Shown here piece by piece: positions 43,058-60,703 of a stretch of DNA of 64,000 bases. The translations under genes were made by a program, and so were the position numbers. The number at the start of each line of letters is the position of its first letter. The first letter of the stretch is position 1. The notes beneath the pieces were generated by a model that worked only from the letters and a program-made list of their open reading frames with translations, made no database searches and was not told the origin of the DNA. This stretch comes from a virus (lineage: Duplodnaviria > Caudoviricetes): positions 2,218-66,217 of the IMG/VR virus record IMGVR_UViG_3300032223_000402; one strand, written 5' to 3'.

Positions 43058-43115
43058 ATATTTCTCCCCCTAAACTAGCACGGTAAATAATGTGCTATGT
43101 TAATTGGGAGATAAT
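43058..43115 (+). promoter_or_regulatory. RBS-sequestering hairpin with late promoter TAAATA in its loop
   Basis: TCTCCC pairs with GGGAGA (the SD). TAGCAC (43076-43081) pairs with GTGCTA (43092-43097). TAAATA at 43084-43089. Confidence 0.6.
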
Positions 43116-44326: not shown

Positions 44327-45162
44327 GTTTTGGATATTTAATTTTTGTTTCAACATCAACTGAAGCTGATTACGCACAATTAGCATACGCATTGGCGTTA
44401 AGTATTAAGAATACACAGCGTCCTGGCTATGACCAAGTAGCATTAGTAATTGATGATCCTCATCAGATCACAAGATTTAATTCTACCTGGGTATTCGACC
44501 ACGTGATTCCTTGGGACAAAGAAACTTACTGGGACGGTCGTAGCTGGATGGATCAGCTGAGCCCATTTGACAACACCGTCTGCCTAGATGCAGATATGTT
44601 GTTCCTTAGAGATTACAGTCATTGGGCAGAATATTTTATAGAAAATTCTGAATTATATGTCGCCAACAAGAGTTATACCTATCGAGGGGAGCTTGTAACG
44701 TCGGACGAATATAGAAAAACATTCATAAAAAATAACTTACCTAATCTATATAGTTTTTATACATTCTTTAAAAAAGACAGTGAGCTTGCAAAAGAGTTTT
44801 TTACTCTTGGTAGATACATTCTTAAAAATCCGCAGGAGTTTTCTAATTCGTTTCTTACGGCACACAAACCAAAAGTTATAGGAACTGATGAAGCATTTGC
44901 GTTGTCTGCTAAAATTTTAGATATCAGTGACGATATATCTTATCCTTTAGATTTTCCTAAAGTTGTTCATATGAAACCGATGGTTCAAAATTGGCCGTGG
45001 CCTGCAGATTTAGTTTCAGATCACGTAGGATTTTATCTCAACAAAAAAGGGCAACTGAAGATAGGTAACTATCAACAAACAGACATTGTTCATTATGTCG
45101 AGAAAGAAAAGATCAATACAGAGATGATTAATATCTTGGAGGAAATAGCGTGGAAGAAATAA
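44323..45162 (+). CDS. GT-A fold glycosyltransferase-like protein (paralog of the preceding gene)
   Basis: GYLIF...DY...AYALALSI, SPFD.TVCLDADM (DxD), VHMK, HY. Confidence 0.7.
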   Translation: MSFGYLIFVSTSTEADYAQLAYALALSIKNTQRPGYDQVALVIDDPHQITRFNSTWVFDHVIPWDKETYWDGRSWMDQLSPFDNTVCLDADMLFLRDYSHWAEYFIENSELYVANKSYTYRGELVTSDEYRKTFIKNNLPNLYSFYTFFKKDSELAKEFFTLGRYILKNPQEFSNSFLTAHKPKVIGTDEAFALSAKILDISDDISYPLDFPKVVHMKPMVQNWPWPADLVSDHVGFYLNKKGQLKIGNYQQTDIVHYVEKEKINTEMINILEEIAWKK

Positions 45163-45779
45163 TTGATTTTGACAAATGGTTAGAGAATTATACTCCTCCC
45201 GAGATAGTCTATGTTGCTGTGTTCAATCCTGACACAGGCCAAGTAACCAGCGTAGGTCCGTCATATGCCTTTGAGACAGTTGAACATAAACTGCCTATTG
45301 ATTCTGAAATCGCCGAAATGATTCTCGAAGGCAAAATCAAGATCCATACCTGCGTTGTGGATATTCAGGCAGGCACATTAGAAATTGCAGAAATTAAATC
45401 TGTTTTTAAAATTGATGATGTACTACATAGGATTATCAGCAAAGAGTGGACAGATATTGAAAAGCCCGATATCTACATTACTTACGATAGAAGTAAAAAA
45501 TCTATGAAGTTCGAATTGACTGAAGAATTCGGCGGAACATATAAACTAGCAGAAAAGTTTCAGCCTGTAAAATCTCGCAAGATACATTGGGACGGCGATA
45601 CACTAATGAACTTTTTAGTCACAGAATACAACGATCCTAACATATTAAATGAAATGATTTCGTTTAAAATTTCTGATCTTATTGGTCAGGCAAAAATAAT
45701 TAGAAGTTTAGATCTAGAAGAGAAGTTCAGCGTTTATACTAGACGCATTTTTAAAAATTACATTATAGAGGAAAAATGA
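45150..45779 (+). CDS. Hypothetical protein
   Basis: 209-aa ORF overlapping both neighbours, with a GGAGG SD. Confidence 0.65.
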   Translation: MEEIIDFDKWLENYTPPEIVYVAVFNPDTGQVTSVGPSYAFETVEHKLPIDSEIAEMILEGKIKIHTCVVDIQAGTLEIAEIKSVFKIDDVLHRIISKEWTDIEKPDIYITYDRSKKSMKFELTEEFGGTYKLAEKFQPVKSRKIHWDGDTLMNFLVTEYNDPNILNEMISFKISDLIGQAKIIRSLDLEEKFSVYTRRIFKNYIIEEK

Positions 45780-46687
45780 AAGTCGTTGAATTTGATGTAG
45801 TATTCTTAAGCTACGATGAACCAAACGCAGATTTACATTACGCAGATCTCTGCAACAAAGTGCCCTGGGCCAAACGTGTACACGGAGTCAAAGGCAGCGA
45901 CCACGCACATAAAGCAGCAGCCGAACTAAGTGACACAGACTGGTTCGTTACTGTAGATGCGGACAACATAGTTGATCCAGACTTTTTCAATTTAGAACTA
46001 GATATGAGCGATCCTAAAATCCAGGTCTATGGATGGTGTGGTCGCAATAGTATTAACGGTTTACGTTATGGTAACGGCGGATTAAAAATCTGGAAGAAAG
46101 ATTTTGTTCTTAATATGCAGACACACGAAAACGCAGCCAGCAATCGTGCGCAGGTAGATTTCTGTTGGGAAGATGGATATAAAAACTTTCCACGCATCTA
46201 CAGTGAAAGTATTATTACAGGATCGCCATTCCAGGCCTGGAGAGCAGGATTCCGCGAAGGTGTTAAAATGACGTTACTTGACGGCGTCAAAGTTCCACCT
46301 CAGGAAATCAAAGAACGTATTTGGTGGCACAATATTCATAGACTACGTATGTGGTCAACTGTCGGCGCACACGAGGAAAATGGATCGTATGCAGTATACG
46401 GTGCTAGGTTAGGAACCTGGTTAGCAAATTGCACAGAATGGAATTATGTAGAAGTTAGAGATTTTGAAATTCTTAGAGGTATATGGAATCAATATGGTCG
46501 CCCATACGAGGAAGTTATTAGCGAAGGTCTTGAAGATGCCATAACAGATTTAGGGGAAAAAATTAAACTACAGTTAGGGTTGGATTGGCCGTTCCTCGAT
46601 GCTGCTCAAAGCAAATACACATTAGACCTATACGATGAAACAATCAATCTAGGCCTCACTTATTATAGAATGCCTGAAAATGTATGA
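45776..46687 (+). CDS. GT-A-like glycosyltransferase
   Basis: DVVFLSYDEP, GVKG...AH..AA, VDADN (DxD), YGNGG, AWRAGFRE. Confidence 0.65.
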   Translation: MKVVEFDVVFLSYDEPNADLHYADLCNKVPWAKRVHGVKGSDHAHKAAAELSDTDWFVTVDADNIVDPDFFNLELDMSDPKIQVYGWCGRNSINGLRYGNGGLKIWKKDFVLNMQTHENAASNRAQVDFCWEDGYKNFPRIYSESIITGSPFQAWRAGFREGVKMTLLDGVKVPPQEIKERIWWHNIHRLRMWSTVGAHEENGSYAVYGARLGTWLANCTEWNYVEVRDFEILRGIWNQYGRPYEEVISEGLEDAITDLGEKIKLQLGLDWPFLDAAQSKYTLDLYDETINLGLTYYRMPENV

Positions 46688-47720
46688 TATATTTTATGTT
46701 GGCAAAGGAGCGATTAGTAATACTGCTTGGGAAGAGTTCAAAGGCAGATATCCTAACGCACAAAAATTAGAAAACGTAAAATCTTTTGAAGAAGTAAAAC
46801 TCAGAGCTTTTACAAAAATGTTCTGGGTAGTTTGGGATTATGTATTAGTTAATCCTGAATTTAATTTAGACTATCGAGTTCCTAAATGGGATGAAGAATA
46901 CGTACACGTATTTAAAAACGGAAACTTCTACGATGGTATTTGTATATTTCCAAAAAATATTAGAATCTTACAGCGTGAATGGGATTATAGATTTTTTACA
47001 AACAAAAAAGAAATAGACGTTGTAGCAAGCTACCCTAGAAAATTCGATGTTGTATTCCTAAGTTACAATGAACCATCGGCAGAAATTAACTTTTCAAAAT
47101 TGCTAGGACATCTCAATGGCAATCGTACTCATTGGGTGCAAGGAGTTAAAGGTATACATCAAGCACATATAGAAGCAGCACGTAGAGTTTCGACAGATAT
47201 GTTTTATGTTGTTGATGCTGATGCGGATATAGTTGATACTTTTAATTTCGATTATCAAATTCCACATTATGATTTCAATGCCAAAAGTACAGTACACGTT
47301 TGGCAAAGCCAAAATCCAGTTAACAACTTGACTTACGGTTACGGTGGTGTTAAACTATTACCAACGAAGCTGACTTTAGATATGGACCTATCCAAGCCGG
47401 ATATGACAACTAGCATATCGAAGTTATTTAAATCTATGCCAGAAGTTTCAAATGTAACTCGCTTTAACACAGATCCATTTAGTACCTGGAGATCAGCTTT
47501 TAGAGAATGTTGTAAATTAGCTAGTCGTGTTATTGATAGACAAGATGATCTAGAAACAACTGAACGACTAGATGTTTGGTGTAATACTTCTACTGATGCT
47601 TATGCACAGAACGGTGCAATAATGGGTAGAGATTACGGGCTCGATAACAAAACAAATTTAGAAGCATTAAAACTAATCAACGACTTTGATTGGTTAAAGG
47701 AAAGATTTAATGGACGATAA
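46680..47720 (+). CDS. GT-A-like glycosyltransferase (paralog of the preceding gene)
   Basis: DVVFLSYNEP, GVKG...AH..AA, VDADA, YGYGG, WRSAFRE. The N-terminal part is a degenerate copy. Confidence 0.65.
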   Translation: MYDIFYVGKGAISNTAWEEFKGRYPNAQKLENVKSFEEVKLRAFTKMFWVVWDYVLVNPEFNLDYRVPKWDEEYVHVFKNGNFYDGICIFPKNIRILQREWDYRFFTNKKEIDVVASYPRKFDVVFLSYNEPSAEINFSKLLGHLNGNRTHWVQGVKGIHQAHIEAARRVSTDMFYVVDADADIVDTFNFDYQIPHYDFNAKSTVHVWQSQNPVNNLTYGYGGVKLLPTKLTLDMDLSKPDMTTSISKLFKSMPEVSNVTRFNTDPFSTWRSAFRECCKLASRVIDRQDDLETTERLDVWCNTSTDAYAQNGAIMGRDYGLDNKTNLEALKLINDFDWLKERFNGR

Positions 47721-49074
47721 GGCAAGGATACAAAAATTCATTCCTATAATGAATGAAATCTCGCCTACCTTTTGTCTGGCTAAATGGCATCACACTACCA
47801 TTTATCTGCAAACAGGCGAAACACATAGTTGTTACCATCCAGCACCGCATAAAATTCCTTTAGATGAAATAGCGGTTGATCCTAGTGCATTACACAACAC
47901 CAAAGAAAAAATTAACCAACGTGCAGAAATGATGGAGGGAAAGAAACCGTCAGGCTGTCAATATTGTTGGAACATCGAAGCATTAGGCGAAGAATATATC
48001 AGTGACCGCAAAGAACGCAATGCTAGTATCTATACAGAAGAAAGACTAGGAGCTATTAAAGAGAATCCGCTAGCTCCAGTAAATCCACAATACATTGAAA
48101 TTAGTTTTGGCAATGAATGTAATTTTAAATGCGGATATTGCCATCCTAAACACAGCAGTGCATACTACAAAGAGATCAAAGATTTTGGTCCTTATACAAT
48201 GGTTAAGAATCATCGCAACGATATTGATTGGTTCACTACCTATGAAGAAGAAACTAATCCTTATGTAGAAGCTTGGTGGCGCTGGTGGCCTGAAGTCAGC
48301 AAAACTTTAACGATATTAAGAATTACAGGCGGTGAGCCGCTGTTGCAGCAATCAACCTGGAGACTGCTAGATGACTTATATAATAATCCTAAACCTAATC
48401 TTGAGCTTAATATTAATAGCAACCTCGGCGCCAAGCCGATTATGGTTGAAAGACTGGTGGAAAAAGTAAACAAATTACTAAGTGAAAATAAGATCAAAGA
48501 TTTTAAATTGTTTACCAGTATTGATACTTGGGGTAAGCCTGCTGAATATATTCGCACAGGACTAGACATTGCTGTATGGGAGCAAAACCTAGACACATAT
48601 CTAACTAAAACTTCATTGCCTGTTACGTTTATGATTACGTTTAATATCTTATCTGTAACAACTTTCCAAAGCCTGCTAGAAAAGATATTAGAATGGCGTG
48701 TAAAATACAACGGAGACGCTCAGAATAAATGGCAGCGTATTCGATTTGATACTCCATTTTTAAAAGAGCCGTTGCAGTACGATATGAATATTCTGCCCAA
48801 AGACGAGTTTATGAAGTATATGAAAACCCATCTAGACTTCATTCTAGCCAATTTAGACGATAAAAACCGCAGTAAATTCAACGACTTAGAGTACGCAAAA
48901 TTTGAAAGAGTCGTAAAGTATATGGAAACGACTCAGTATACTAACGAGAAGCTTAAAGAGGGGCGTAGAGACTTCTTTAATTGGTTTACTGAGTATGACC
49001 GCAGACGCGGCACTGATTTCGTCCAAACATTCCCAGAATTGGAAAATTTCTATTATGACTGCCGCATCGTCTAA
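47710..49074 (+). CDS. Radical SAM protein with N-terminal Cys-rich (twitch-like) domain
   Basis: CNFKCGYC, ITGGEP, YIR.G. Extra C...W..SC.H and C.YCW ligands. Confidence 0.9.
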   Translation: MDDKARIQKFIPIMNEISPTFCLAKWHHTTIYLQTGETHSCYHPAPHKIPLDEIAVDPSALHNTKEKINQRAEMMEGKKPSGCQYCWNIEALGEEYISDRKERNASIYTEERLGAIKENPLAPVNPQYIEISFGNECNFKCGYCHPKHSSAYYKEIKDFGPYTMVKNHRNDIDWFTTYEEETNPYVEAWWRWWPEVSKTLTILRITGGEPLLQQSTWRLLDDLYNNPKPNLELNINSNLGAKPIMVERLVEKVNKLLSENKIKDFKLFTSIDTWGKPAEYIRTGLDIAVWEQNLDTYLTKTSLPVTFMITFNILSVTTFQSLLEKILEWRVKYNGDAQNKWQRIRFDTPFLKEPLQYDMNILPKDEFMKYMKTHLDFILANLDDKNRSKFNDLEYAKFERVVKYMETTQYTNEKLKEGRRDFFNWFTEYDRRRGTDFVQTFPELENFYYDCRIV

Positions 49075-50239
49075 GACTTTCTGCATACTTCCTTGGGTGC
49101 ATTTTTACGCTAACCCTGATGGCAGTGTGTTGCCCTGCTGTATTGGCGATCATCATAAACCCCTAGGAAATGTACGATCTAACACTATAGAAGAAATTTG
49201 GAACAGCGACAAATATAAATCAATGCGTTTAAAAATGCTGAACGGCGAACGCTGTGACGAATGTTCTGCTTGCTATCAAAGCGAAGACAACGGAATTAAA
49301 AGCGCAAGGCAGCACCAAAACATAGAGTTTCAAGATTACAACAAATTAGCATATTTTACAAATCCTGATGGATCTGTAAACTCGATGGATCTAAAATATC
49401 TTGACATACGCTGGAGTAATATCTGTAACTTCAAATGTCGTAGTTGTTCTAGTACCTATTCAAGTAGTTGGGCCACAGAAGATAATAAAAACGGGTATAA
49501 CAAGCCTGTGTTTATTTTGTCAGGCGGCGATAATAATGATCAATTATTTTCACAGATAAAACCGCATCTAGCTAATATTAGAGAGTTTTATTTTGCAGGT
49601 GGTGAGCCGTTGCTCACAGACAAGCATTACGAGATATTAGACTATCTAATCGAAATCGGTAACACAGACGTTAAACTGCGTTACAACACAAATCTCAGTA
49701 ACCTGCAATATAAAGATAAGTCGATCATAGATTATTGGAATCAGTTTACACGAGTTGAAGTGTATGCTAGTTTAGACAGTTGGGGCGATCGTGCAGAATA
49801 TATTCGTGAAGGCACAGTCTGGGAAGATATAGAAGCCAATGTTTCAAAAATAAGACTAGAAGCTCCTAATGTTAAACTAGGAGTAAGCTCGGTTATATCA
49901 GCATTCAACGTTGCTACACTGATTCCTTTTATAGATAAAATAACAGATATGATGGGTAATCATCTTAATTTAAATTTCTATAATTTAATCAATCCCCATT
50001 ATTACAGCACATCAATAATACCTGCCGATCTCAGAAAAGAAATTATTTTAAAATTAGAAAGAACTCGTTATAACAATTCAATTAATCGACAGATTGACAA
50101 TGTTATTTCTCATTTGAAAAATACAGAATACAGCAATGAGTTGAGATTAGAATTTTTAAATGTCACGGATCATTATGACGATATTCGCAATAGACATTTT
50201 GTCGAAACATTTCCGGAACTAGCGGAGTTATATTCTTGA
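49055..50239 (+). CDS. Radical SAM/SPASM-twitch protein
   Basis: CNFKCRSC, FAGGEP. N-terminal CILPW...PCC...C..C. Likely start is the ATG at 49055. Confidence 0.9.
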   Translation: MTAASSKTFCILPWVHFYANPDGSVLPCCIGDHHKPLGNVRSNTIEEIWNSDKYKSMRLKMLNGERCDECSACYQSEDNGIKSARQHQNIEFQDYNKLAYFTNPDGSVNSMDLKYLDIRWSNICNFKCRSCSSTYSSSWATEDNKNGYNKPVFILSGGDNNDQLFSQIKPHLANIREFYFAGGEPLLTDKHYEILDYLIEIGNTDVKLRYNTNLSNLQYKDKSIIDYWNQFTRVEVYASLDSWGDRAEYIREGTVWEDIEANVSKIRLEAPNVKLGVSSVISAFNVATLIPFIDKITDMMGNHLNLNFYNLINPHYYSTSIIPADLRKEIILKLERTRYNNSINRQIDNVISHLKNTEYSNELRLEFLNVTDHYDDIRNRHFVETFPELAELYS

Positions 50240-51471
50240 AATCATATTTTGACAATTTAAACACCTATGATTCTAATATGATAGAGTTTACGTCAAGCGG
50301 CGATAATTCTTTTTGGATAGTATCTCCTGGCTCAATAATTAAAAAAAGACTAGTGGAATACGGGTTTGAAATAGACACAGTTGCTAACATCAGTAGCCCT
50401 GGCTGTTATTTTATCGATGTTAATGCAGATCCTCAATGGTGGTCTGGTGTACTAAAAGACAACGGTATCCCTAAGGATCATATTATTGATCTAATTCCTG
50501 AACATATAAAAAATCTTGTAAGAAAAAGACTCTTGAGAATTATCATTGCTGCGGATAAAGAAGGAGGGGTGTTTGTCACTGATGATTGGGACTGCTATCA
50601 AGCGACCACTGATTCGGTTGAGCGTTCTTTATTACCTCCGGGCTCAGTTTTAATTTTACACGGCAATATGAAAGCCGAGGAACAATATCATCAATGGTTA
50701 GACAACACAAACAACCCAAAGCTGTTTGAAGTGATGTATTCGAATACATTCTTAAAAGTTTTCTTTGATGAAAGGATTCCGCAGACTCCTGTAATAACAC
50801 AGGCAATATCGAATCTCAATGTAAAAGATTACAACAGTCTTAACCGTGTTTTTAGACCGCATCGTGGTGCGCATCTGTACAAGTTAGTTAAAGATAATAT
50901 TTTAAAAAATGGATTAGTTAGTGCTAATGAAGTATTTCGAGATGAGGCAGCAGTTGAATTATCAGGCAGTACCAGCGATGATTATTATACAGTAATGTCC
51001 AGCAACTATCCTAAGTTTATTGACGGTGACTGGTCGAATGAAAATGCAGGCCCGCAATACAATATTGACATTTACAAAAATAGTTTATTATCTTTTATAA
51101 CCGAAACTAAATTCAACGAGCCGAGTGTGTTCCCGACAGAAAAAATTTATAAACCGTTGGCACTAGGGCATCCAGTCATATTGTTAGCTGCGGCCGGCAC
51201 ACTCGCGGCACTACGTAAGATGGGATTTAGAACCGACTGGTGCGATATAGATCCCAGTTACAACGATATAGAAGATGATGCAGAACGACTACAGGCAACA
51301 CACAGTGAATTATTAAAATGGGTTAAGCTGCCAACGCAGGAAAAAATTGAACGTATTAACAATTCAATGCCTACCATAGAACATAATTTTCTTTTATCTA
51401 GAACCAGTAATTTTCATAAAGAATCTTTGTCTGAAGCATTAAATAGATCCGAGAGGTATTTCAATGATTGA
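50236..51471 (+). CDS. Putative glycosyltransferase-like protein (GT10-like C-terminal motif)
   Basis: LNR..RPHR and ITET.....FPTEKIYKP...GHP...L..LR..GF, shared with ORFs 52252 and 55558. Confidence 0.5.
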   Translation: MKSYFDNLNTYDSNMIEFTSSGDNSFWIVSPGSIIKKRLVEYGFEIDTVANISSPGCYFIDVNADPQWWSGVLKDNGIPKDHIIDLIPEHIKNLVRKRLLRIIIAADKEGGVFVTDDWDCYQATTDSVERSLLPPGSVLILHGNMKAEEQYHQWLDNTNNPKLFEVMYSNTFLKVFFDERIPQTPVITQAISNLNVKDYNSLNRVFRPHRGAHLYKLVKDNILKNGLVSANEVFRDEAAVELSGSTSDDYYTVMSSNYPKFIDGDWSNENAGPQYNIDIYKNSLLSFITETKFNEPSVFPTEKIYKPLALGHPVILLAAAGTLAALRKMGFRTDWCDIDPSYNDIEDDAERLQATHSELLKWVKLPTQEKIERINNSMPTIEHNFLLSRTSNFHKESLSEALNRSERYFND

Positions 51472-52252
51472 TTTTAAAAAGTATAAAAGATTCTTTGCTT
51501 TTGGTTGCAGTATGACTGACTATTGGTGGCCGACCTGGGCAGATATACTTGGAATGCAGTTTGAAGAATATTATAATTTTGGTAGAAGCGGTGCCGGTAA
51601 TACTTTTATCGCATTACAAATTGCCGAAGCACACAAGAGACACAAATTTCAAGAGGACGATCTGGTCATAGTTATGTGGACCAGCATCACAAGAGAAGAT
51701 CGTTATGTTAACCGCTATTGGCAAACACCTGGAAATATCTATACACAAGACTACTATGATTCGGAGTATATCAGAAAATATTCTGATGTAAGAGGGTATT
51801 TAATTAGAGATCTTGGTCTAATATCATTAGTGTCAGAAACATTAAAGTCTGCACACTGCGATTTTCATATGTTGAATATGAGTCCATTTGTTAAAGAACC
51901 TTCGCACTATGGTGATTATAATGCCAACGATCCGACAGCGGGTCTTGAAGACGTGGTCGAATTATATAAAGATACTATCGGAGATATACTTCCAGATTTG
52001 CTGACAACATCCTGCAACGGAAAATGGCCGCAGGTGCCTATCTCTCACAGTAAACATCAAAAAACTGATTATCACCCGACTACAGCAACACACCTACATT
52101 ATCTTAAATCTGTATTTGAAGGAATTGACATTCCTGAAAAAACACTTAATTGGGTTGATTACCACGAAGATAAGATTAGATCTTCTAAACAAATCACTGA
52201 TTTAGATTCAATAAAGTGGAAACTAACTAGAAAAAATCAGCGGCCACTATAA
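51464..52252 (+). CDS. SGNH/GDSL-like hydrolase or acyltransferase
   Basis: FAFGCSMT (block I), N.G.SGAGN, DYHP (block V). Confidence 0.65.
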   Translation: MIDFKKYKRFFAFGCSMTDYWWPTWADILGMQFEEYYNFGRSGAGNTFIALQIAEAHKRHKFQEDDLVIVMWTSITREDRYVNRYWQTPGNIYTQDYYDSEYIRKYSDVRGYLIRDLGLISLVSETLKSAHCDFHMLNMSPFVKEPSHYGDYNANDPTAGLEDVVELYKDTIGDILPDLLTTSCNGKWPQVPISHSKHQKTDYHPTTATHLHYLKSVFEGIDIPEKTLNWVDYHEDKIRSSKQITDLDSIKWKLTRKNQRPL

Positions 52253-53409
52253 TGCCTTGCGTTAATAATCCTAGTCCTTATCTAATCACATACGATCCTT
52301 CTAATCCTCGATTAGAAATGACTTCGTCTCGAGCCACATTTGTTCGCCGTAACGAAACATTTGATTATTGGTATTGCCAATTTAGCTGCCATAACAGTTT
52401 TAAGTGTTTTGATATATTTCAATTGATGACAGCTGATGAAATCCAACGTGTTAAACAAGGCACATTGTTTATAGTATTAGACAACGGCCTAGAACCTTTC
52501 TTGAAATCTGCAGATGGGATTTACCACAATATTGTAATGCGAGGTATTCCTGCATCACAGATAATTTTTATGAGTTCTGTTCCTACAATGATAGACTACG
52601 TTAACAAGCTATCAAGACAACTAGGACAAGATCCAATTCGTGTAGAATGGTATAGCCTGTTTGAAGAAGCGATGTGGGACATAATAACACACCAATTAAC
52701 AACGCCACTAGACACATTGACAAAAAAACAGTATAATAAAAAATACATCAATTTTAATCGACGTTGGAGATTACATCGTCCTTTGATGTTGACTTTATTA
52801 AAGGATAAAAATCTAATAGATCAAGGATACGTGAGTTTTGGAAAGAGTGATTTCCCTCAAGACACTTGGCCTAGTAGATGGAATGAAATGCAAAGATACT
52901 ATTCTGGCAATCGAGACATACTTGATATATTAGAAAGAAACGCAGATATACAAGATATGGATCCCTTGTATCTTGATACAGAAGATCTTGTAACTAATCG
53001 TGCAGAGCAAACTGATTCTACAGACAAGTATTACCTCGATACTTACTTTAGCTTAGTCAATGAAACAACATATCATACTCGACCTGGGTATGATGGTGTT
53101 CCGTTCTGGAGCGAAAAGATTTTTAAATGTATTGCGATGAAGCATCCTTTTGTAGTTGCAACAGCACCGAATAGTTTGCAATATCTAAAACAGCTAGGAT
53201 ATAAAACCTTTGAAGGCATCATCGACGAAAGTTACGATCTTGAACTTGATGACGGAAAACGTATGATCAAGATAGTCAACGAAACTGAACGTCTCTGTAA
53301 TCTGCAAGACACGGCATTAGAAAACTTTTTAACGCTGGCCAAATCTATCTGCGAATACAACTATAACGTACTAAAAAACAAAACAGAATTCATCAAGGCA
53401 ATGAACTAA
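52252..53409 (+). CDS. Putative glycosyltransferase-like protein (GT10-like motif)
   Basis: FNRRWR.HR and VNET...FWSEKIFK....HPF.....L..LK.LGYKTF...IDESYD. Confidence 0.5.
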   Translation: MPCVNNPSPYLITYDPSNPRLEMTSSRATFVRRNETFDYWYCQFSCHNSFKCFDIFQLMTADEIQRVKQGTLFIVLDNGLEPFLKSADGIYHNIVMRGIPASQIIFMSSVPTMIDYVNKLSRQLGQDPIRVEWYSLFEEAMWDIITHQLTTPLDTLTKKQYNKKYINFNRRWRLHRPLMLTLLKDKNLIDQGYVSFGKSDFPQDTWPSRWNEMQRYYSGNRDILDILERNADIQDMDPLYLDTEDLVTNRAEQTDSTDKYYLDTYFSLVNETTYHTRPGYDGVPFWSEKIFKCIAMKHPFVVATAPNSLQYLKQLGYKTFEGIIDESYDLELDDGKRMIKIVNETERLCNLQDTALENFLTLAKSICEYNYNVLKNKTEFIKAMN

Positions 53410-55595
53410 TGGGATTTAATTTTAAAAAATTCAAACACAAGTCAGAGCCAAGAGAAAAGCCTGCAGATCTAGAAGATCGCCACAAGGCAATGCTAGCGGC
53501 TATCGCTCCCTATGCCAAAGCCAGCGTTCAAAAGAATGTTACTGATGTTACAATTGATTACGCCAGCAGAAAAACTAAATTGATATTGGTTTTAATGCCG
53601 GAGTGGTCTGCACGTTTCCCGCCATTCAATCTTGCACGTCTAAGTGCAGTAGCCAAGGAAGCAGGATATCAAACTCGCATATTAGATATCAATGCTAAAT
53701 GCTATAGAGAATACAAACTGAACATCAGGCCAGCAAACACACTTAATTTTACTCTATGGAATCCAGCAAGTAGTTGGAGGTGGGTAGGTGAAAATTATTA
53801 TAAATTTGTTCATCCGTTGTTTGAAGAAAAATACAGAGAGTACATCAATAATATCGTTGAGTATGCTCCTGACGTTATAGGATTTTCGATGTATCAGTTC
53901 AGCGAAGAACCAACTAAATGGATAATAGCTGAACTCAAGAAGCATTTACCAGATGCAAAAATAGTTATTGGTGGTAGTAATGTGCAACACGGATGGTTTC
54001 GTGTTGAAAATTATTACAACTATGTTGTTAATGGCGAAGGCGAACAAAATATTTTAAAAATACTAGACGAAGTTGAGCAAGGAATTCATCATTCAATTAC
54101 ACAATATCTAACACAGCCTGAAGAACAACGCATTAATCTAAACAACTTGCCAATGCCTGATTATTCTAGCATTGACTTTAACGATTATGAAATACCCAAC
54201 GGTGCGTTAAGCGAATTAAGTCGCGGTTGTACAGCTAAGTGTACATTCTGTGAAGAAACACATTTTTGGAAGTATCGCCAACGTCAAGCAGTAGATGCAC
54301 TATCTGAGATAGAATATTTGTATTATAACAAAGGCACAGATATTATTTGGTTTATCGATAGTCTAGTCAACGGTAATTTAAAAGAACTACGTGCTTTTGC
54401 CAAAGGAGTTGTTGCCAAAGGTTTAAAAATCAAATGGACCGGATATGCGAGATGTGATGGTCGTATGGACCTAGACTATCTAAAAGATCTAGCAGACAGC
54501 GGATGTATTGCTCTTAACTACGGCTGCGAAAGCGGAAGTCAAAAAGTTCTAGACGACATTGACAAAGGTGTTACTGTAGCTGAGATGGAACAAAACTTCC
54601 GTGACGGCAAGCGAGTCGGTATCTACGCAGCAACAAATTGGATTGTAGGATTTCCTACAGAAACATATCAGGACTTTGCAGATACAATGACATTCTTGTG
54701 GCGTATGCGTAACGAGAATATCAATAACATCGGCACAGGTATGGGCTTTGGTCTAGGACCAGAAACCATTGCAGGACAGAATCCAGATAGGTTTAATCTT
54801 TCAGGACAGAAATATCTAGGATTTTGGATCACAAAAGATTTTAAACTCGGTGGCAGTCACGTATTAACTCGTGTAAAGAGTTTTAACATACTTGTTGATA
54901 ACCTTGCACCTGATCAATATATCGATTATCCTGTGCGCCCTGACCTTGCCAAGTATCATTATGATCTAACTTTTAATAATGACAATACACGTAAAGACCT
55001 AGCGTATGAAAAGTACGATTACAACATTATCAAAACAGATATTAACCCCTATGCTGATAGTCTTGTAAACGAAATATGGCCTGTGCTGCGTACTCTGTGG
55101 AGAGCTAGAGGCGGATACAGTATAACTATCAGGTTCAGTCCTGAACTAGACACAGCGGAGTTTGGCGGCCACTTCGGCACAGGACAATATTGGGCAGACT
55201 ATCATTTTGTTGTTGATGATGCAGGTAGTTGGTCAGCTGATTTTAAAATTAAATTCAATCAGATACACGATACAAAGAATGATCCTCGTGAAGCACACAG
55301 GCACGGTCCTTTCTTTGCTCAGGAGTTTAGTCGTATGCAAGGAAATGCTGCTAAACGTGCTAGAAAATTAGCCAAGCCAGTATGGGGTGAAGAAGGGCGC
55401 AGCCATAAAGACTTTGAAGAATTACTAAACGAAGAATTCTATCTAAATCAAACTACCGAATGGAGTTTTGATTGGGCTTGGAAAGGCACAGGTGACTGGA
55501 GTGATTATAAAGATTATGAAATTGCCGTGCCAACAGCAATAGAACAACCGATGATTTTTATAAAACCACAGAGTTTGAACGAAATTCCTTCATAA
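53409..55595 (+). CDS. Cobalamin-dependent (class B) radical SAM enzyme
   Basis: B12-binding region (PPFNLA.L, PDVIGFS, IVIGG, GEGE), SRGCTAKCTFC, GCESGSQKVL, IVGFPTET. Confidence 0.9.
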   Translation: MGFNFKKFKHKSEPREKPADLEDRHKAMLAAIAPYAKASVQKNVTDVTIDYASRKTKLILVLMPEWSARFPPFNLARLSAVAKEAGYQTRILDINAKCYREYKLNIRPANTLNFTLWNPASSWRWVGENYYKFVHPLFEEKYREYINNIVEYAPDVIGFSMYQFSEEPTKWIIAELKKHLPDAKIVIGGSNVQHGWFRVENYYNYVVNGEGEQNILKILDEVEQGIHHSITQYLTQPEEQRINLNNLPMPDYSSIDFNDYEIPNGALSELSRGCTAKCTFCEETHFWKYRQRQAVDALSEIEYLYYNKGTDIIWFIDSLVNGNLKELRAFAKGVVAKGLKIKWTGYARCDGRMDLDYLKDLADSGCIALNYGCESGSQKVLDDIDKGVTVAEMEQNFRDGKRVGIYAATNWIVGFPTETYQDFADTMTFLWRMRNENINNIGTGMGFGLGPETIAGQNPDRFNLSGQKYLGFWITKDFKLGGSHVLTRVKSFNILVDNLAPDQYIDYPVRPDLAKYHYDLTFNNDNTRKDLAYEKYDYNIIKTDINPYADSLVNEIWPVLRTLWRARGGYSITIRFSPELDTAEFGGHFGTGQYWADYHFVVDDAGSWSADFKIKFNQIHDTKNDPREAHRHGPFFAQEFSRMQGNAAKRARKLAKPVWGEEGRSHKDFEELLNEEFYLNQTTEWSFDWAWKGTGDWSDYKDYEIAVPTAIEQPMIFIKPQSLNEIPS

Positions 55596-56703
55596 CATTT
55601 CTGTTGTGTTCTAACACGTCCTGCATTTCTCTACGCATTAGTACTAGTTCATCTAAAGATTTACTGTTAATAAAATCAATAATTTCAAATATTTGCATCA
55701 TACGGTCGGTGTGATTTTCTATTTGATCGTAATCTTCATTCCACCATTGACTAAAAGTTTTAAATCCTAGTTTTTGTAAATACTCTAAGGTATATGGAGG
55801 TGCTACTAGTACGAATGGAATGCCTAGTGATAACGGTATTAAAGTTTTTTCACTAAAGTTAGCTGTTGGTTGTGCAAATCTGGTTTCAGTTATCACTGCA
55901 CAGAAACAATCAAGGTAACTTTCTAAAAAATTAAGACTAGCTCTTGGAGCATTGTGATTGGGAATATACACATCGGTTGGATTTGATACTTCCATACAGT
56001 AATCGAACTCAATACTAAAAATTTTAGATTCTAGGATCTTTGCACCTTCTTCTAATCTTGATTTAATTGTTTCGTCTATGTCGAACCAGACATTGTCTTT
56101 TAGATCTTCAAAAGTTGATTTCAAATGCCAGCTAAATGTTCCATCAAGTTTTGCCATCCAGCTCATTATAATATGCCGATGCGGAGTATAACGCCAATTA
56201 CCGCACCAAAACTTTTTAGTGATTTCTTTATCGATATTAATTCTATCATCGGTATAATCTTGTCTTAGAAAAAAATCTAGGCATTTTAAACTTAGACGAG
56301 GATAAGAAAGGCAACTCATATTATAATCGCCTGTATACACAGTAATGTCTAAGTTATATTTTTCTGCAAAGATTGAAATACTATCGAGCTCTATTGCACG
56401 TAGGTTAGTTTCGTTATCGCGGAATTCGCTATAGAAAGATCGATTAAAAAAATCTTTGTACAGAGACAGCGGTTCGTACAAATATATAGATAGTCCTCGC
56501 TTGCGTAAGCGATTTGCCTGCTTTTCAGTTAGCCTAAAGTTTTCTAATCTTTTTATTTTACCAGTACCACTAAAAATAAAAAATGGTTCAGTGACATCTC
56601 TTAAAAAAGACTTCTGTATTTTTTTATAAAGGAATCCTTCATTGTTCGGCGTATCGATAGGAAGGTTTTTCCAGAATAACTCGTGTACGTGATCGTCAGA
56701 CAT
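55558..56703 (-). CDS. Putative glycosyltransferase-like protein (GT10-like motif)
   Basis: NWRY.PHR and VITET.....NFSEKT..P...PFVL......LE.LQ.LGFKTF..WW.EDYD. Confidence 0.5.
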   Translation of the reverse strand: MSDDHVHELFWKNLPIDTPNNEGFLYKKIQKSFLRDVTEPFFIFSGTGKIKRLENFRLTEKQANRLRKRGLSIYLYEPLSLYKDFFNRSFYSEFRDNETNLRAIELDSISIFAEKYNLDITVYTGDYNMSCLSYPRLSLKCLDFFLRQDYTDDRINIDKEITKKFWCGNWRYTPHRHIIMSWMAKLDGTFSWHLKSTFEDLKDNVWFDIDETIKSRLEEGAKILESKIFSIEFDYCMEVSNPTDVYIPNHNAPRASLNFLESYLDCFCAVITETRFAQPTANFSEKTLIPLSLGIPFVLVAPPYTLEYLQKLGFKTFSQWWNEDYDQIENHTDRMMQIFEIIDFINSKSLDELVLMRREMQDVLEHNRNVMKEFRSNSVVL

Positions 56704-57193
56704 TTTTTATTCCCGTGATTTGTAAAGTGTAACGATCTAGCAATCCTATATTACTAGCAGCGTGAGAAGCATCGTTATTCCAAAGAACATAGTCGCCTTT
56801 TTTATAATCTACAACAGCAACGCCTTCTATTTCAAAATAGTGTCCGGGTTTCCAATCATCTAAGAATACAATAGCTCTCCACACGTCTTTTCTTTCTACA
56901 TTAAACACCTGACAATAACGTGAGAAATGATCTGCGTGTGTGGGCATAACAACGCCAGTAGTCATTCTATAGAAAACAAATCCGCAGTTATTTAGGCCTA
57001 TTTCGTTGGCAACATCATTACACCAATGCGGCATAGGATTTGTACTGTCGTACATCAGACCTGTAAAGTATTCATTAGTATAACCGGCAGCTCTCCATTC
57101 TGTTTCTTCTTCGTGAGTAAGCGGTTGTCTTATATAGTTGAAAGACTTAAATGAATCGTCCCACTGCGTGAGTATATGTCCTTTAGTCCACAT
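56696..57193 (-). CDS. Putative 2OG-Fe(II)/cupin oxygenase
   Basis: MPTHAD (HxD), distal H.A.N.G...RYTLQITG. Confidence 0.6.
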   Translation of the reverse strand: MWTKGHILTQWDDSFKSFNYIRQPLTHEEETEWRAAGYTNEYFTGLMYDSTNPMPHWCNDVANEIGLNNCGFVFYRMTTGVVMPTHADHFSRYCQVFNVERKDVWRAIVFLDDWKPGHYFEIEGVAVVDYKKGDYVLWNNDASHAASNIGLLDRYTLQITGIKNV

Positions 57194-58145
57194 TTCTTTC
57201 TAGATCCAAAGTAACACAATGAAAGCATCCGCCGAGCGTTCGGCTATGACGCATTGGTAGCATTGCACACTCTATTCCTTTTTCTTGTAATAGCTTTCTA
57301 AGATTATGTTGATGTTCTTCTAACACAACTAAAGTTGGCGATACACTTAATAAGTTTACATTAATCCAAGTTGATGCGTGGCAGTATCCTGGGTAGTGTC
57401 CGATATCTACAGGCTCAGGAGCCCAGATGACATCCCAGTTACGGAAGTACTCTGGTAGTTGGTCAATGCTTTTTATCCTACTAGGATTTAATAACATTAG
57501 GCCTTCTCGTAAAAATGCAACAGTGCTGTCGATGTGCATATAGCTATAGACATTTTCCAATGTATGTACTTTTGCTTTAACTATGTTATTCAAATAATCT
57601 GCTCCGGCTTTGTTGCCGCTGTTTGACACAAGGTATAGAAGATGGTTGTTGGCCTTGATAACATTCGCAGCATCAAACTTAGGATATGTTTCATTCAATG
57701 CTAGGATATCAGGATTGCCTACACAGAGTTCGTTATAAACATCATCACCTTGATAATTTGGAATTTCTACAATATATTTTAAATGTTCTGCATACGCTAG
57801 ATATTCTTTGTTTCTAGATTGTAAGCTCATTGGAGCAACAATAGATTCTCGTCCGTAGGTTAGCACAGTATCTCTAGGACAATAGTTATAATAATTTACA
57901 GTATTTCTTTGTGGCCTAACAACGTCTACTGAACATTTTGTTAAAAAATCTGCAAATGTTTCTAGGTCTTCGTTGGCTTCGTCAATGACTTGCTGAGGAT
58001 AGGGTCCTGATTTAATTGTAGATTCGTCCCCGACATCAGCATAATTTACTGTTCTAAGACTCTTATCTAACGTAGGGATCTGTGCATAGTCGGCAACGCC
58101 TACTACGATCTTTTTCAGTGTGCCCCATTCGTTTATTGTTGACAT
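57183..58145 (-). CDS. Amidinotransferase (glycine/inosamine-phosphate amidinotransferase family)
   Basis: NEW..L..IVVG, CPRD, FDAA, HID and GGCFHC.T.D catalytic motifs. Likely start is the ATG at 58145. Confidence 0.9.
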   Translation of the reverse strand: MSTINEWGTLKKIVVGVADYAQIPTLDKSLRTVNYADVGDESTIKSGPYPQQVIDEANEDLETFADFLTKCSVDVVRPQRNTVNYYNYCPRDTVLTYGRESIVAPMSLQSRNKEYLAYAEHLKYIVEIPNYQGDDVYNELCVGNPDILALNETYPKFDAANVIKANNHLLYLVSNSGNKAGADYLNNIVKAKVHTLENVYSYMHIDSTVAFLREGLMLLNPSRIKSIDQLPEYFRNWDVIWAPEPVDIGHYPGYCHASTWINVNLLSVSPTLVVLEEHQHNLRKLLQEKGIECAMLPMRHSRTLGGCFHCVTLDLERNVD

Positions 58146-58834
58146 ATAATTTCTTTTAAGTGCTTGGCCCAAGCAGTGTGTCCATCTTCGTTAGGATGTC
58201 CGCAATTGAGAAAATATTTTGTGTCTCTGAGTTCTTCTCGTTCAACACAGGCATATTGCCATTTATCACCTAGATATTTCTTGGCAAAATTTTCAGTGGT
58301 GATATTATCTTCGTGTAAAAATCCAAATTCAAAAATCGGAATTTTATATTTAAAATCTACCCCTTGCAGATTTGCTAGATATTCTAAAAAAGATTTATCA
58401 AGAAACTCTGAATGGTTACGTGCAGGTACATCTCCAAATACACTGAACATCATTACAGGAACGCCCATTCCTAACACTCGAGAAATTTGATATTCCCAAT
58501 TATCTAGTAAATCGTTTAACGAAGTATTTTCAAACCATTCATCTCGTTTTTTAGAAAGTTCGGGGTCGACGTAACTTAGAGAAAACTGCGTAGATCTAAA
58601 TAACTTAGATTCAAAGTATCTTGTAACACCGCTCCATCCTATAATACATAGATTTGGTTTATATTTCTTAACTAATCGTTGGGCAGTTTTAACAATGGTT
58701 TCGTTGTCTGATCCTGGATTGGCACCGACTATTACTTCAGCATTTAATAATCGTCCTAGCACATACGGCCAGGTAACTGCAGGATCGATATCCCAACCCT
58801 TGGTCCAGCTATCTCCCACACATAAGATTTTCAT
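58133..58834 (-). CDS. SGNH/GDSL-like hydrolase or acyltransferase
   Basis: CVGDSWT.G, PG..N and GHPN..GH..WA. Likely start is the ATG at 58834. Confidence 0.7.
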   Translation of the reverse strand: MKILCVGDSWTKGWDIDPAVTWPYVLGRLLNAEVIVGANPGSDNETIVKTAQRLVKKYKPNLCIIGWSGVTRYFESKLFRSTQFSLSYVDPELSKKRDEWFENTSLNDLLDNWEYQISRVLGMGVPVMMFSVFGDVPARNHSEFLDKSFLEYLANLQGVDFKYKIPIFEFGFLHEDNITTENFAKKYLGDKWQYACVEREELRDTKYFLNCGHPNEDGHTAWAKHLKEIICQQ

Positions 58835-59418
58835 TTGAATACAGCCATATCTGGTAAGTGCGGGTAGTCTTTGTATTCCCAAGTTCTAGGAATAGTCCTT
58901 GCAGCTTCTTCAAATTTTTCTAATCCTAGTTGAGCAGTCTCTGGAGTCATATAATAATGGTACCCAACAGTGTCTATATTTTGTTCAGCCCACGGTGTAT
59001 TTCGTTCTCTGCCATCGTAGACCATTTTTTTCAAAGCATTATAGATCTTTACGTCATCAGTTAGTATTGCCCCGCCGCGACCTAGATTTAGATGTTTTTT
59101 AAATTGAAAACTTAGGCACATCAGAGTCCCAGGTATGTAACCATTGCGTTGCCAAAACACCGCAGCATCGATTACATTAGTATTCCCTAGGCAATAATAA
59201 TCTTTCCAAAGGCGGTCTTCGAACTTCCATTTGATATTTAATTTTTCTAGTGTAAATGGAATTGATATATAGGTGTTACTTGGACAGGTGGCTGCAACAA
59301 CTTTTTGATGTCTTAGGCAAAGCTCTATTGCGTGTGTGCAACAATCAGTAGATACCGCATAAGGGGCACCAAAAAAATCTGCGATCTTATTTTCAAATTC
59401 TTCGACTATTTTAAACAT
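58831..59418 (-). CDS. Shortened DegT/DnrJ/EryC1/StrS-family PLP aminotransferase
   Basis: FE..IA...G..YAV....CT.A, IDAA, SFQ..KHL..G.GG motifs. Only 195 aa. Confidence 0.8.
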   Translation of the reverse strand: MFKIVEEFENKIADFFGAPYAVSTDCCTHAIELCLRHQKVVAATCPSNTYISIPFTLEKLNIKWKFEDRLWKDYYCLGNTNVIDAAVFWQRNGYIPGTLMCLSFQFKKHLNLGRGGAILTDDVKIYNALKKMVYDGRERNTPWAEQNIDTVGYHYYMTPETAQLGLEKFEEAARTIPRTWEYKDYPHLPDMAVFK

Positions 59419-59422
59419 ACCA

Positions 59423-59440
59423 TATTTATTGATATAAATA
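59423..59440. promoter_or_regulatory. Back-to-back late promoter-like motifs
   Basis: TAAATA on the minus strand (59423-59428) and a perfect TATAAATA on the plus strand (59433-59440), in a 52-bp divergent gap. Confidence 0.65.
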
Positions 59441-59470
59441 TCTGGTCAGTTTATTTTTCAAAGAGGTTAT

Positions 59471-60703
59471 ATGAAGATTGGTTTTATTGGTCTAGGTAAA
59501 TTAGGGTTTCCCTGCGCTGAAGCAATAGCAAACAAAGGTCACAATGTGACGGGATACGATGTTCGTACAGTCGATCCAACAATGCTAATAGCAATTAAAA
59601 AAACAATTAAAGAAGCGGTACAAGATAGAGAAATTGTTTTTATCGCAGTGCCAACACCGCACGATCCTGCCTATGATGGGCGCACACCAACTGCTCACTT
59701 GACACCAAAAGACTTTTCATATGACATAGTAAAACAATGCCTCGAAGAAGCCAACAAGCATATGAATAAGGGTCAGCTATTGGTTCTTATCTCTACAGTG
59801 TTACCTGGAACTGTAAGACGTGAATTTGTACAGTATGTTACCAATACTAGATTCATTTACAATCCTTATCTCATCGCTATGGGATCGGTGGCTTGGGATA
59901 TGGTCAATCCTGAAATGGTAATGATCGGAACCGAAGACGGAACCGAAACAGGCGATGCAAAACAGTTAGTAGACTTTTATAAAACCGTTATGGAAAACGA
60001 TCCTAGATATGTTATTGGTACTTGGGACGAATGTGAATGTATTAAAGTTTTTTATAATACATTTATCAGCGCAAAGATTGGTCTTGTTAATATGATACAA
60101 GATGTTGCTATCAAACAAGGTAATATAAATGTTGACGTAGTAACAGACGCATTGGCAAAATCAACAATGCGTATTATGGGACCTCAGTATATGAAGGCAG
60201 GTATGGGAGACGGCGGTGCTTGCCATCCTCGTGATAATATTGCATTACGTTATATGGCAGATAATCTTGATCTAGGTTATGATCTATTCGATGCTATTAT
60301 GAATGCTCGTGAAGTGCAGGCAAAAAATCTTGCCAAAGAATTAGTTAAACACGCCAAAGAAAATAAGATGAGTATCTTTATTCACGGTAAGGCTTATAAA
60401 CCAGATGTAGAATACTGTGACGGAAGTTATAGTTTGCTAGTCGGACACTATTGCACAGAACTAGGTTACCCTCCGATTTACATTGATCCGTTAACAGGCG
60501 ATGATATGGGAGGAGTCTACGGAGTTGTCTTACTGGCACATAACAAGAAAGTCACCTATGAGTACAGAGGCTTTGAAGAACTTCAAGGATTATATTGTAC
60601 AATAGAAAAAGGGTCAATCGTAATTGACCCTTGGAGAATGTTTGATCTAAACAACAAAGATTACAAAGTAATCCACTACGGTAACACTAGAGTATTGTCT
60701 TAG
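59471..60703 (+). CDS. UDP-glucose/GDP-mannose dehydrogenase family protein
   Basis: GFIGLGKLG Rossmann motif, AVPTP, STV.PG, E.IK...N, GG.C.PRD, G.AYKP. Confidence 0.93.
   Translation: MKIGFIGLGKLGFPCAEAIANKGHNVTGYDVRTVDPTMLIAIKKTIKEAVQDREIVFIAVPTPHDPAYDGRTPTAHLTPKDFSYDIVKQCLEEANKHMNKGQLLVLISTVLPGTVRREFVQYVTNTRFIYNPYLIAMGSVAWDMVNPEMVMIGTEDGTETGDAKQLVDFYKTVMENDPRYVIGTWDECECIKVFYNTFISAKIGLVNMIQDVAIKQGNINVDVVTDALAKSTMRIMGPQYMKAGMGDGGACHPRDNIALRYMADNLDLGYDLFDAIMNAREVQAKNLAKELVKHAKENKMSIFIHGKAYKPDVEYCDGSYSLLVGHYCTELGYPPIYIDPLTGDDMGGVYGVVLLAHNKKVTYEYRGFEELQGLYCTIEKGSIVIDPWRMFDLNNKDYKVIHYGNTRVLS

Follow-up and report, generated by a model that had tools for sequence, protein, structure and literature searches.

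Introduction

What would it take to place a guanidino group on a sugar? In streptomycin biosynthesis, the DegT-family enzymes StsC/StsA and the amidinotransferase StrB1 convert a keto group to an amino and then to a guanidino group, with arginine as the donor, and guanidino groups are known on cyclitols (streptidine). Nucleotide sugars are aminated in the pathways to GDP-perosamine (GMD + Per), UDP-Ara4N (Ugd + ArnA + ArnB) and UDP-GlcNAc3NA (WbpA + WbpB + WbpE), none of which, to our knowledge, proceeds to a guanidine. Here we describe a gene cassette on a 64,000-nucleotide fragment of an uncultured T4-like marine myovirus (IMG/VR record IMGVR_UViG_3300032223_000402, positions 2,218 to 66,217; hereafter the window), in which a StrB1-like amidinotransferase (AmT) is paired with a half-size DegT-family domain (mini-DegT) of the type that depends on pyridoxal 5'-phosphate (PLP). 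With a probability of roughly 0.55, we propose that this conserved cassette takes a keto group through an amine to a guanidine on a sugar of a glycan built by the phage.

Both kinds of known pathway share features with the phage cassette. StrB1 of Streptomyces griseus (1bwd) is homologous to the phage AmT over its full length, and the Asp/His/Cys triad is common to both. In the streptidine branch, a DegT-family gene likewise accompanies the amidinotransferase (StrB1 + StsC), and the order of chemistry would be the same. The phage cassette departs from that branch in having no recognised cyclitol genes, in the 195 amino acids of its partner aminotransferase, and in its location within a glycosyltransferase island rather than an actinomycete antibiotic cluster. 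As for nucleotide-sugar amination, the mini-DegT matches Per, ArnB, WbpE, PglE and DesI in fold, and genes for GDP-mannose 4,6-dehydratase (GMD), a short-chain dehydrogenase/reductase (SDR) or a UDP-glucose dehydrogenase-family enzyme (UGDH) adjoin the cassette; however, the aminotransferases of those pathways are two-domain proteins of ~360-400 amino acids.

The layout of the window is that of the "host recognition cluster" of pelagi- and cyanomyophages, which Zaragoza-Solas et al. 2020 describe as a hypervariable island in the structural region, containing tail fibres, glycosyltransferases, radical SAM cassettes and UDP-glucose 6-dehydrogenase (PMC7029224). In the same paper the genes of the cluster are read as modifiers of the host O-chain, and the word aminotransferase has 0 occurrences (PMC7029224). 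Our literature search found one paper touching homologues of the cassette, the genome paper of Synechococcus phage S-SCSM2R, which annotates ORF305/306/309 as "antibiotic synthesis genes" (3-amino-5-hydroxybenzoate (AHBA) synthase, radical SAM maturase and inosamine amidinotransferase) and proposes no pathway for them (PMC12801897). S-SCSM2R ORF309 is 60% identical to the AmT of the window over 318 residues, and this phage also possesses the mini-DegT (E 6e-77) and the cupin (E 1e-22) of the cassette. Unlike in the window, other glycosyltransferase families surround its cassette and no UGDH stands beside it. A second, distant amidinotransferase paralogue of S-SCSM2R (ORF266; L055:28354-29247), 22% identical to the AmT of the window, is encoded near KdsA/KdsB and 2-oxoglutarate (2OG) oxygenases, and the protein is reported in the virion proteome in that paper (PMC12801897).

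The original prediction for the window, made from its letters, had read six divergently arranged genes as streptidine-like logic leading to a guanidinylated nucleotide sugar. Below we compare each part of the locus with its relatives and weigh that reading against its alternatives.

Results

AmT is closest to StrB1 among solved structures

The AmT gene lies on the minus strand at 57183-58172. Its longest open reading frame (ORF) begins at TTG 58172, but ATG 58145 is the likely start and would give a product of 320 amino acids; the closest relatives are 317-320 amino acids long and span 96-97% of the query. In a phmmer search against solved structures, StrB1 is the best match (1bwd; E 1.2e-64, 221.9 bits, residues 8-326), followed by HsvA (5wpi; E 4.2e-34, 121.6 bits), SxtG (6u1r; E 4.8e-25, 91.8 bits) and the glycine amidinotransferase AGAT (1jdx; E 3.8e-24, 88.9 bits). 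By these alignment scores, glycine amidinotransferase is a far more distant match than StrB1 (88.9 versus 221.9 bits). The catalytic columns align with those of StrB1, namely the Asp of PRD, the His of HID (H-x-D) and the Cys of FHC, the StrB1 residues being presumably D108, H227 and C332. Residues D101, D167, H213, D215, R232 and C319 of AmT are invariant across 20 phage-type sequences, and the Asp, His and Cys motifs that had been called intact in the original prediction are indeed so.

No Pfam family matches AmT at E<=0.01, and arginine deiminase models of Pfam and NCBIfam cover its last 55 residues only (E 0.04-0.08). The automatic JGI name for the protein, "N-dimethylarginine dimethylaminohydrolase", was rejected because the full-length matches are transferases and the hydrolase models are confined to those C-terminal 55 residues. 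To judge from the alignments, AmT is a full-length member of the amidinotransferases of the pentein/guanidino-modifying superfamily with a Cys-His-Asp triad, and it is predicted to pass the amidino group of arginine on to an amine, releasing ornithine.

At E<=1e-3, 6894 protein clusters are related to AmT, cellular ones included. A close match (E<=1e-20) is found in 1 of 50,697 GenBank phage records, that of S-SCSM2R. A search for longer AmT homologues revealed no fusion to a DegT protein or a glycosyltransferase, which is weak evidence; it returned one 667-amino acid protein, of the cellular type (36% identity), the extra part of which has no Pfam family.

The partner of AmT is a half-size DegT-family domain

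The mini-DegT gene (58831-59418, minus strand) encodes a 195-amino acid PLP domain of the DegT/DnrJ/EryC1/StrS family (PF01041; E 6.6e-17, 62.2 bits against a cut-off of 19.8), and one orthologue scores 60.3 bits. The protein spans only the large-domain positions of the profile. The C-terminal small domain is absent, and with it the two-domain architecture of ~360-400 amino acids found in the DegT family. Its best PDB sequence match is WbpE, K108 being aligned to the Schiff-base Lys of the WbpE SFFPSKP motif; both K108 and D84, which we take to be the Asp that pairs with the PLP pyridine, are invariant among 12 same-length orthologues. The predicted model (pLDDT 91) has GDP-perosamine synthase as its top fold match (E 2.4e-10; TM 0.69 by query, 0.38 by target), and overall the matches give TM 0.65-0.73 by query and 0.33-0.41 by target, which corresponds to the large PLP domain only. 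All of the fold matches listed are DegT-family PLP enzymes, mostly sugar or cyclitol aminotransferases (Per, BtrR, DesI, ArnB, PglE and WbpE). The DegT aminotransferase announced by the original prediction is therefore present, and it retains the PLP Lys and Asp, but it is half the expected size.

The genes of the minus-strand cassette overlap one another. The mini-DegT stop and the ATG of the following gene, which encodes an SGNH/GDSL-like protein, overlap as ATGA at 58831-58834, ATG 58834 being the likely SGNH start. AmT ATG 58145 overlaps the SGNH stop, the ORFs for AmT and the cupin overlap by 11 nucleotides, and those for the cupin and the glycosyltransferase-like protein that comes next overlap by 8 nucleotides. 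On this arrangement, the cassette genes are read as translationally coupled.

AmT and mini-DegT occur together in phage loci

A scan of IMG/VR produced 52 AmT loci, 51 of them with a whole AmT; the other, L054, contains the first 38 residues only and was excluded from all counts. Dereplication at 90% AmT identity reduced the 51 loci to 28 clusters, and neighbouring genes were scored within 10 kb. The mini-DegT is near AmT in 26/28 clusters (48/51 loci), always on the same strand and with a gap of <=2.6 kb. It adjoins AmT or sits one or two genes away, across AmT divergence down to 54% identity. The two clusters that do not have it are L042, in which the sequence stops ~1 kb past AmT, and L029/L036. 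The check for a failure of the genes to co-occur in other genomes, which would have spoken against the original prediction, thus leaves the core of DegT protein and AmT unrefuted.

Glycosyltransferase-like genes of one kind or another are found within 10 kb of AmT in 27/28 clusters, with up to five per locus. The families vary by lineage: arrays of phrog_2835 glucosyltransferases (8/28 clusters) are found in S-SCSM2R-type loci, and a GT-B-like family (19/28 clusters) in the window.

Phage and cellular amidinotransferases form separate groups

A search of 185,579 cellular species genomes with a single AmT protein as the query found no relative, and with the alignment A2 as the query 212 of 216 candidate stretches encode one. 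The best 80 of these 212 relatives were examined; they exhibit 34-41% identity (best E 3.7e-68) and are about as close to AmT as StrB1 is. In a tree built from 29 phage sequences plus 10 of the 80 cellular ones, from which StrB1 is absent, the phage AmTs group in a single clade that excludes the 10 cellular relatives, with a Shimodaira-Hasegawa-like approximate likelihood-ratio test (SH-aLRT) value of 100.

Ten cellular loci were annotated (32 neighbour ORFs). Six of them, L058, L063, L133, L060, L074 and L071, come from Luminiphilus, Halioglobus, Hyphomicrobium, Planctomycetota and Pyrinomonadaceae, and in these, at ~8-15.5 kb of each, the AmT relative is followed by a protein of 1400-1700 amino acids that resembles a non-ribosomal peptide synthetase (NRPS). 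Four of the six also contain a PALP (SbnA-like) and/or an ornithine-cyclodeaminase-family gene. A LysE exporter is present in two actinomycete loci, of which one also contains a GDSL protein and a carbamoyltransferase. In a Frankiaceae metagenome-assembled genome (L056:11711-20515), the AmT relative and LysE exporter adjoin a 2934-amino acid protein with Tc-toxin TcA domains, an association of adjacency only.

An oxidoreductase diverges from the cassette

On the other side of the mini-DegT gene, and divergent from its operon, lies the gene for UGDH (59471-60703, plus strand), a 410-amino acid nucleotide-sugar 6-dehydrogenase of the UDP-glucose/GDP-mannose dehydrogenase family. The protein matches the N domain PF03721 (E 9.3e-18), the central domain PF00984 (E 7e-16) and the PHROG "UDP-glucose dehydrogenase" (E 5.5e-98), and its C-terminal domain has no Pfam match. 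The catalytic Cys is kept, GGAC being aligned to the GGSC of 3vtf (GGxC). With TIGR03026 it scores 148.9 bits, under the cut-off of 189.8, and its scores fall well short of the cut-offs of all the UDP-Glc, UDP-ManNAc and other equivalogs. The motif TATAAATA, which we take to be the T4-type late-promoter consensus, is found at 59433-59440 on the plus strand, 31 nucleotides before the UGDH ATG. It is not enriched, with 2 exact copies in the window versus 7.8 in shuffles, and it is the placement 5' of UGDH, not the count, that is suggestive.

UGDH is near AmT in 6/28 clusters and an SDR in 10/28. The latter figure includes the GDP-mannose 4,6-dehydratase of L029/L036 (TIGR01472, E 6.3e-112), which is encoded directly upstream of AmT and abuts it. 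In the nine further clusters the best matches of the SDR are dTDP-glucose and LegB 4,6-dehydratases, and the motif S-T-M-E-V-Y-G presumably represents the T-x-E signature of SDRs that yield a 4-keto product. No locus contains both UGDH and SDR, and each, where present, is encoded immediately 5' of the mini-DegT operon in the opposite orientation. The UGDH/SDR state switches at least 2 times on the AmT tree, where L004, which has the SDR, is placed as sister to the window and L003, which both have UGDH (SH-aLRT 100). Because the two share this divergent position, never co-occur and have switched repeatedly, the position is no more than suggestive of an interchangeable "nucleotide-sugar oxidoreductase" slot, as seen in related loci with 10-kb flanks.

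Other genes of the island

The SGNH/GDSL-like protein (58133-58882, minus strand) contains a GDS motif at residues 24-26 and matches Lipase_GDSL_2 under the cut-off (E 0.0024; 18.9 versus 32.9 bits). It is near AmT in 1/28 clusters. The gene between mini-DegT and AmT encodes this protein in the window and a homologue of the DUF6071-like protein g51464 in L004, L007 and L017. The window has its own g51464 gene at 51464-52252 on the plus strand (14/28 clusters), which is assigned in the Atlas to viral DUF6071 clusters (features 0.95-0.96, structure TM 0.61). Because the SGNH orthologue of L003 weakly matches Lipase_GDSL_2, Lipase_GDSL and DUF6071 models, the SGNH-like and DUF6071-like proteins may belong to one fold class.

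The small cupin (165 amino acids; 56696-57193, minus strand; 18/28 clusters) is a putative oxygenase with an HxD...H motif. It has no family match of its own in Pfam/PHROG searches, and two orthologues match PF05118 under the cut-off (E 1.8e-4 and 5.2e-4). H86-x-D88...H144 is kept in 12/13 orthologues and R154, ten residues on, in 11/13; the orthologue in S-SCSM2R carries a 2OG-Fe(II) oxygenase annotation, and the protein is probably an Fe(II)/2-oxoglutarate oxygenase. One orthologue (L053:10967-11419) has lost the HxD...H residues with the remaining fold signature intact and may be an inactivated copy. In another locus a 597-amino acid ORF directly after AmT (L019:2094-3887) is a fusion of the small cupin with a member of the GT-B-like family.

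The last gene of the coupled series (55558-56703, minus strand) encodes a 381-amino acid putative glycosyltransferase of GT-B fold, GT10-like. Two paralogues (E 1e-10 to 1e-13), at 50236-51471 and 52252-53409 on the plus strand, flank the g51464 gene. The model has pLDDT 81, and the named top Foldseek and VIA matches are all GT-B enzymes, with Z of only 9.2-7.5 (VIA: T4 beta-glucosyltransferase 9.2, FUT9 8.9, exostosin 8.8, alpha-glucosyltransferase 8.2). PF00852 (GT10) is matched by 1/18 family members (E 2.4e-4), a profile of the family has no match among PDB sequences, and E273, E285 and K286 are invariant. All six genes of the divergent unit in the original prediction are in place, this one lying just outside the range given there, yet the unit as a whole is not conserved, with UGDH in 6/28 clusters and SGNH in 1/28.

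The plus strand also encodes a pair of radical SAM paralogues (47710-49074 and 48995-50239; 18/28 clusters), each bearing a twitch domain at its N terminus, which match NF033640 with 327.8 and 402.4 bits (cut-off 170). Below E 0.1 a single PDB protein matches them, over the twitch domain alone (E 3.4e-4), namely BtrN, which we take to be a radical SAM alcohol-to-ketone dehydrogenase feeding a DegT-family aminotransferase. For a radical SAM enzyme of L009 the identity BlsE (TIGR04466, E 2.8e-9) was considered and rejected, the match being no better than its other radical SAM matches; the radical SAM enzymes of the window do not have this match. A B12-binding radical SAM enzyme, methyltransferase-like and 728 amino acids long (53409-55595, plus strand; 5/28 clusters), matches Radical_SAM (E 1.9e-16) and B12-binding (E 6.5e-9). 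Its best NCBIfam matches are PhpK and C-methyltransferase subfamilies of ribosomally synthesized and post-translationally modified peptides, all far under their cut-offs. Six further cluster genes lie at 43104-47720 on the plus strand, four without a family assignment and two forming a paralogous pair (45776-46687 and 46680-47720; mutual match E 7e-24; 15/28 clusters) that is possibly GT-A, the match to Glycos_transf_2 being at E 0.039 only. No protein of the cluster has a transmembrane-like segment, and all look soluble.

Genomic setting

Baseplate, wedge and tail-fibre genes occupy 8.5-43 kb of the window, and 3' of the tail-fibre genes ~20 tightly packed genes without structural annotation extend up to the AmT cassette. 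Between the baseplate wedge and tail-fibre genes, a single ORF of 4523 amino acids (17832-31403, plus strand; PHROG "virion structural protein", 1019 bits) is probably a VrlC-like giant protein bounding the host recognition cluster. DNA-level relatives of the window among the 50,697 GenBank phage records are only cyanomyophages and Pelagibacter phage HTVC008M; their matches span the dehydrogenase gene, and S-SCSM2R matches the amidinotransferase as well. No RNA run is listed among the sequencing data in which the sequence occurs, and the single run listed may derive from the source sample. At 2930-4757 on the minus strand, distant from the glycan island, an ORF like the PHROG "NAD synthetase" and homing endonucleases and two 2OG-Fe(II) oxygenase ORFs adjoin genes for gp46/gp47-type (SbcC/SbcD-like) nucleases.

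Discussion

How might the enzymes encoded by this island act together? From the observed gene identities, catalytic residues, coupling and co-occurrence we infer a route of which the chemical steps, the substrate (a free NDP-sugar or a glycan-bound sugar) and the destination would be as follows. A keto sugar would be supplied, depending on the phage, by an SDR of the 4-keto-forming type or by GDP-mannose 4,6-dehydratase. In the window this step would probably take a uronic-acid route, through the UGDH-family enzyme and an oxidation by the BtrN-like twitch radical SAM enzyme. The PLP-dependent mini-DegT would transaminate the keto sugar, and AmT would turn the new amine into a guanidine at its Cys-His-Asp site, with the amidino group coming from arginine. 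The cupin oxygenase, the SGNH/DUF6071 proteins and the B12 radical SAM enzyme could decorate the product further, by hydroxylation, (de)acylation and methylation, and soluble GT-B-like and GT-A-like enzymes would incorporate the sugar into a glycan.

The guanidinylated nucleotide sugar of the original prediction is retained in part: AmT itself, the pairing with a DegT protein in 26/28 clusters, the glycosyltransferase-like genes in 27/28 and the sugar-nucleotide enzymes nearby all agree with it, and the half-size DegT protein does not. Its proviso that UDP-glucose dehydrogenases give uronic acids is softened by the WbpA/WbpB/WbpE route, in which a UGDH-family enzyme and a DegT enzyme act in one pathway, WbpE being the best PDB sequence match of the mini-DegT. 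The streptidine (cyclitol) flavour of that prediction is not borne out, there being no recognised cyclitol gene among the cluster ORFs and NRPS-like genes beside the amidinotransferase in 6/10 cellular loci.

A number of observations weigh against the guanidino-sugar pathway. Its weakest link is the keto step, as neither an SDR nor any known keto-sugar-making enzyme was identified in the window, and the likeness to BtrN is at E 3.4e-4 and covers the twitch domain only. The mini-DegT, a predicted transaminase, is missing the small domain with which its full-size counterparts bind their substrates. L029/L036 have AmT and GDP-mannose 4,6-dehydratase and no recognisable aminotransferase; a 364-amino acid ORF of L029 has no PDB match and nothing useful in Pfam or PHROGs, and no replacement aminotransferase was found in this cluster. 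The co-occurrence counts come from mutually related contigs, all of them recruited by similarity to one query. The cellular loci also point elsewhere. The partner genes of the phage are absent from all 80 of them at E<=1e-3, and 6/10 annotated loci have a downstream NRPS-like AMP-binding protein, five with a peptidyl carrier protein (PCP) domain, which may represent a pathway to a guanidino amino acid. By these contexts, which look like amino-acid pathways, the AmT branch would be able to serve non-sugar amines. Likeness to StrB1 alone therefore indicates neither a cyclitol nor a sugar, because cellular relatives that are equally close sit, in several of the annotated loci, in NRPS-like contexts.

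Might AmT then act on a non-sugar acceptor such as 2,3-diaminopropionate, lysine, ornithine or a polyamine, merely travelling with sugar genes, the mini-DegT having a separate role or none? The NRPS-adjacent cellular loci, four with PALP/cyclodeaminase genes, and the LysE exporter in two loci are in keeping with such an acceptor, as are the truncation of the mini-DegT and the second-best PDB match of AmT, HsvA, which is presumably a polyamine amidinotransferase. However, we regard this explanation as unlikely in view of the tight same-strand pairing of AmT and mini-DegT in 26/28 clusters, the translational coupling of the cassette genes in the window and the invariant PLP residues of the mini-DegT; furthermore, none of the cellular partner genes is present in the phage loci. 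It is rather improbable that the phages possess a true streptidine-like route, with an aminocyclitol (inosamine or its phosphate) as the acceptor and a free aminoglycoside-like product. No inositol/inosose synthase, cyclitol dehydrogenase or inosamine kinase was recognised among the cluster ORFs with Pfam, PHROGs and NCBIfam, several ORFs being unassigned, and no exporter, resistance gene or membrane protein is present. The recognisable keto-sugar suppliers of the relatives are NDP-hexose enzymes (GMD and 4,6-dehydratase-like SDRs), and up to five glycosyltransferase-like genes per locus suit a glycan better than a pseudo-oligosaccharide. These absences have to be set against the inosamine-phosphate amidinotransferase StrB1 as the best solved relative of AmT, the presence of BtrR, an aminotransferase of the 2-deoxystreptamine pathway, among the mini-DegT fold matches, and BtrN as the sole PDB match of the twitch radical SAM enzymes. 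B12 radical SAM methyltransferases and carbamoyltransferases are found in aminoglycoside pathways, and carbamoyltransferases are near AmT in 6/28 clusters. The "antibiotic synthesis" reading stated in the S-SCSM2R paper would also be accommodated (PMC12801897).

A third explanation replaces the protein or lipid glycan with DNA that bears glycosylated or guanidino-bearing bases. In VIA, the GT-B-like model comes closest to the T4 DNA beta-glucosyltransferase (Z 9.2), with the alpha-glucosyltransferase at Z 8.2, but these values are tied with those of FUT9, exostosin and protein O-glycosyltransferases. Thymidine hypermodification involves PLP and radical SAM enzymes that work on DNA; here, a gene of the thymidylate-synthase/dCMP-hydroxymethylase family is found in 0/5 cassette records (S-SCSM2R complete; four fragments, 21-47% complete), and no kinase or base-exchange enzyme was recognised. 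DNA modification is accordingly the explanation to which we give very little credence.

If the guanidino-sugar pathway is correct, where would its product go? Our preferred site for the glycan is on fibre or virion proteins of the phage itself, because the cassette is positioned behind the fibres, there is no lipid-carrier or membrane component, and the GT-B matches include protein glycosyltransferases. Modification of the host O-chain is the destination preferred in published work (PMC7029224). The pathway could be extended, doubtfully, to a permanently cationic guanidino-glycan on the tail-fibre or virion proteins of large aquatic myoviruses, made by soluble enzymes only, in which radical SAM enzymes would supply the keto group, a minimal 195-amino acid aminotransferase, its substrate-capping domain lost, would act on a macromolecule-bound sugar and guanidinylation would be of the StrB1 type; aminoglycoside-like chemistry would thereby have been repurposed for host recognition.

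Neither the enzyme families nor the type of phage island is new; it is their combination that predicts an undescribed sugar modification. Our literature search found no report of guanidino groups on viral glycans or on the sugars of nucleotide-sugar pathways. If true, the pathway would represent both a new sugar modification, a positively charged addition in the form of the guanidino group, and a new minimal architecture for sugar aminotransferases. The existence of a cultured carrier, S-SCSM2R, with Synechococcus WH7803 as its host, makes the guanidino-sugar idea testable. With this pathway, a gene pair common in metagenomes of aquatic phages and nearly missing from isolates (1/50,697 records) would gain a function, and the pathway would also be relevant to the role of the host recognition cluster of pelagi- and cyanomyophages.

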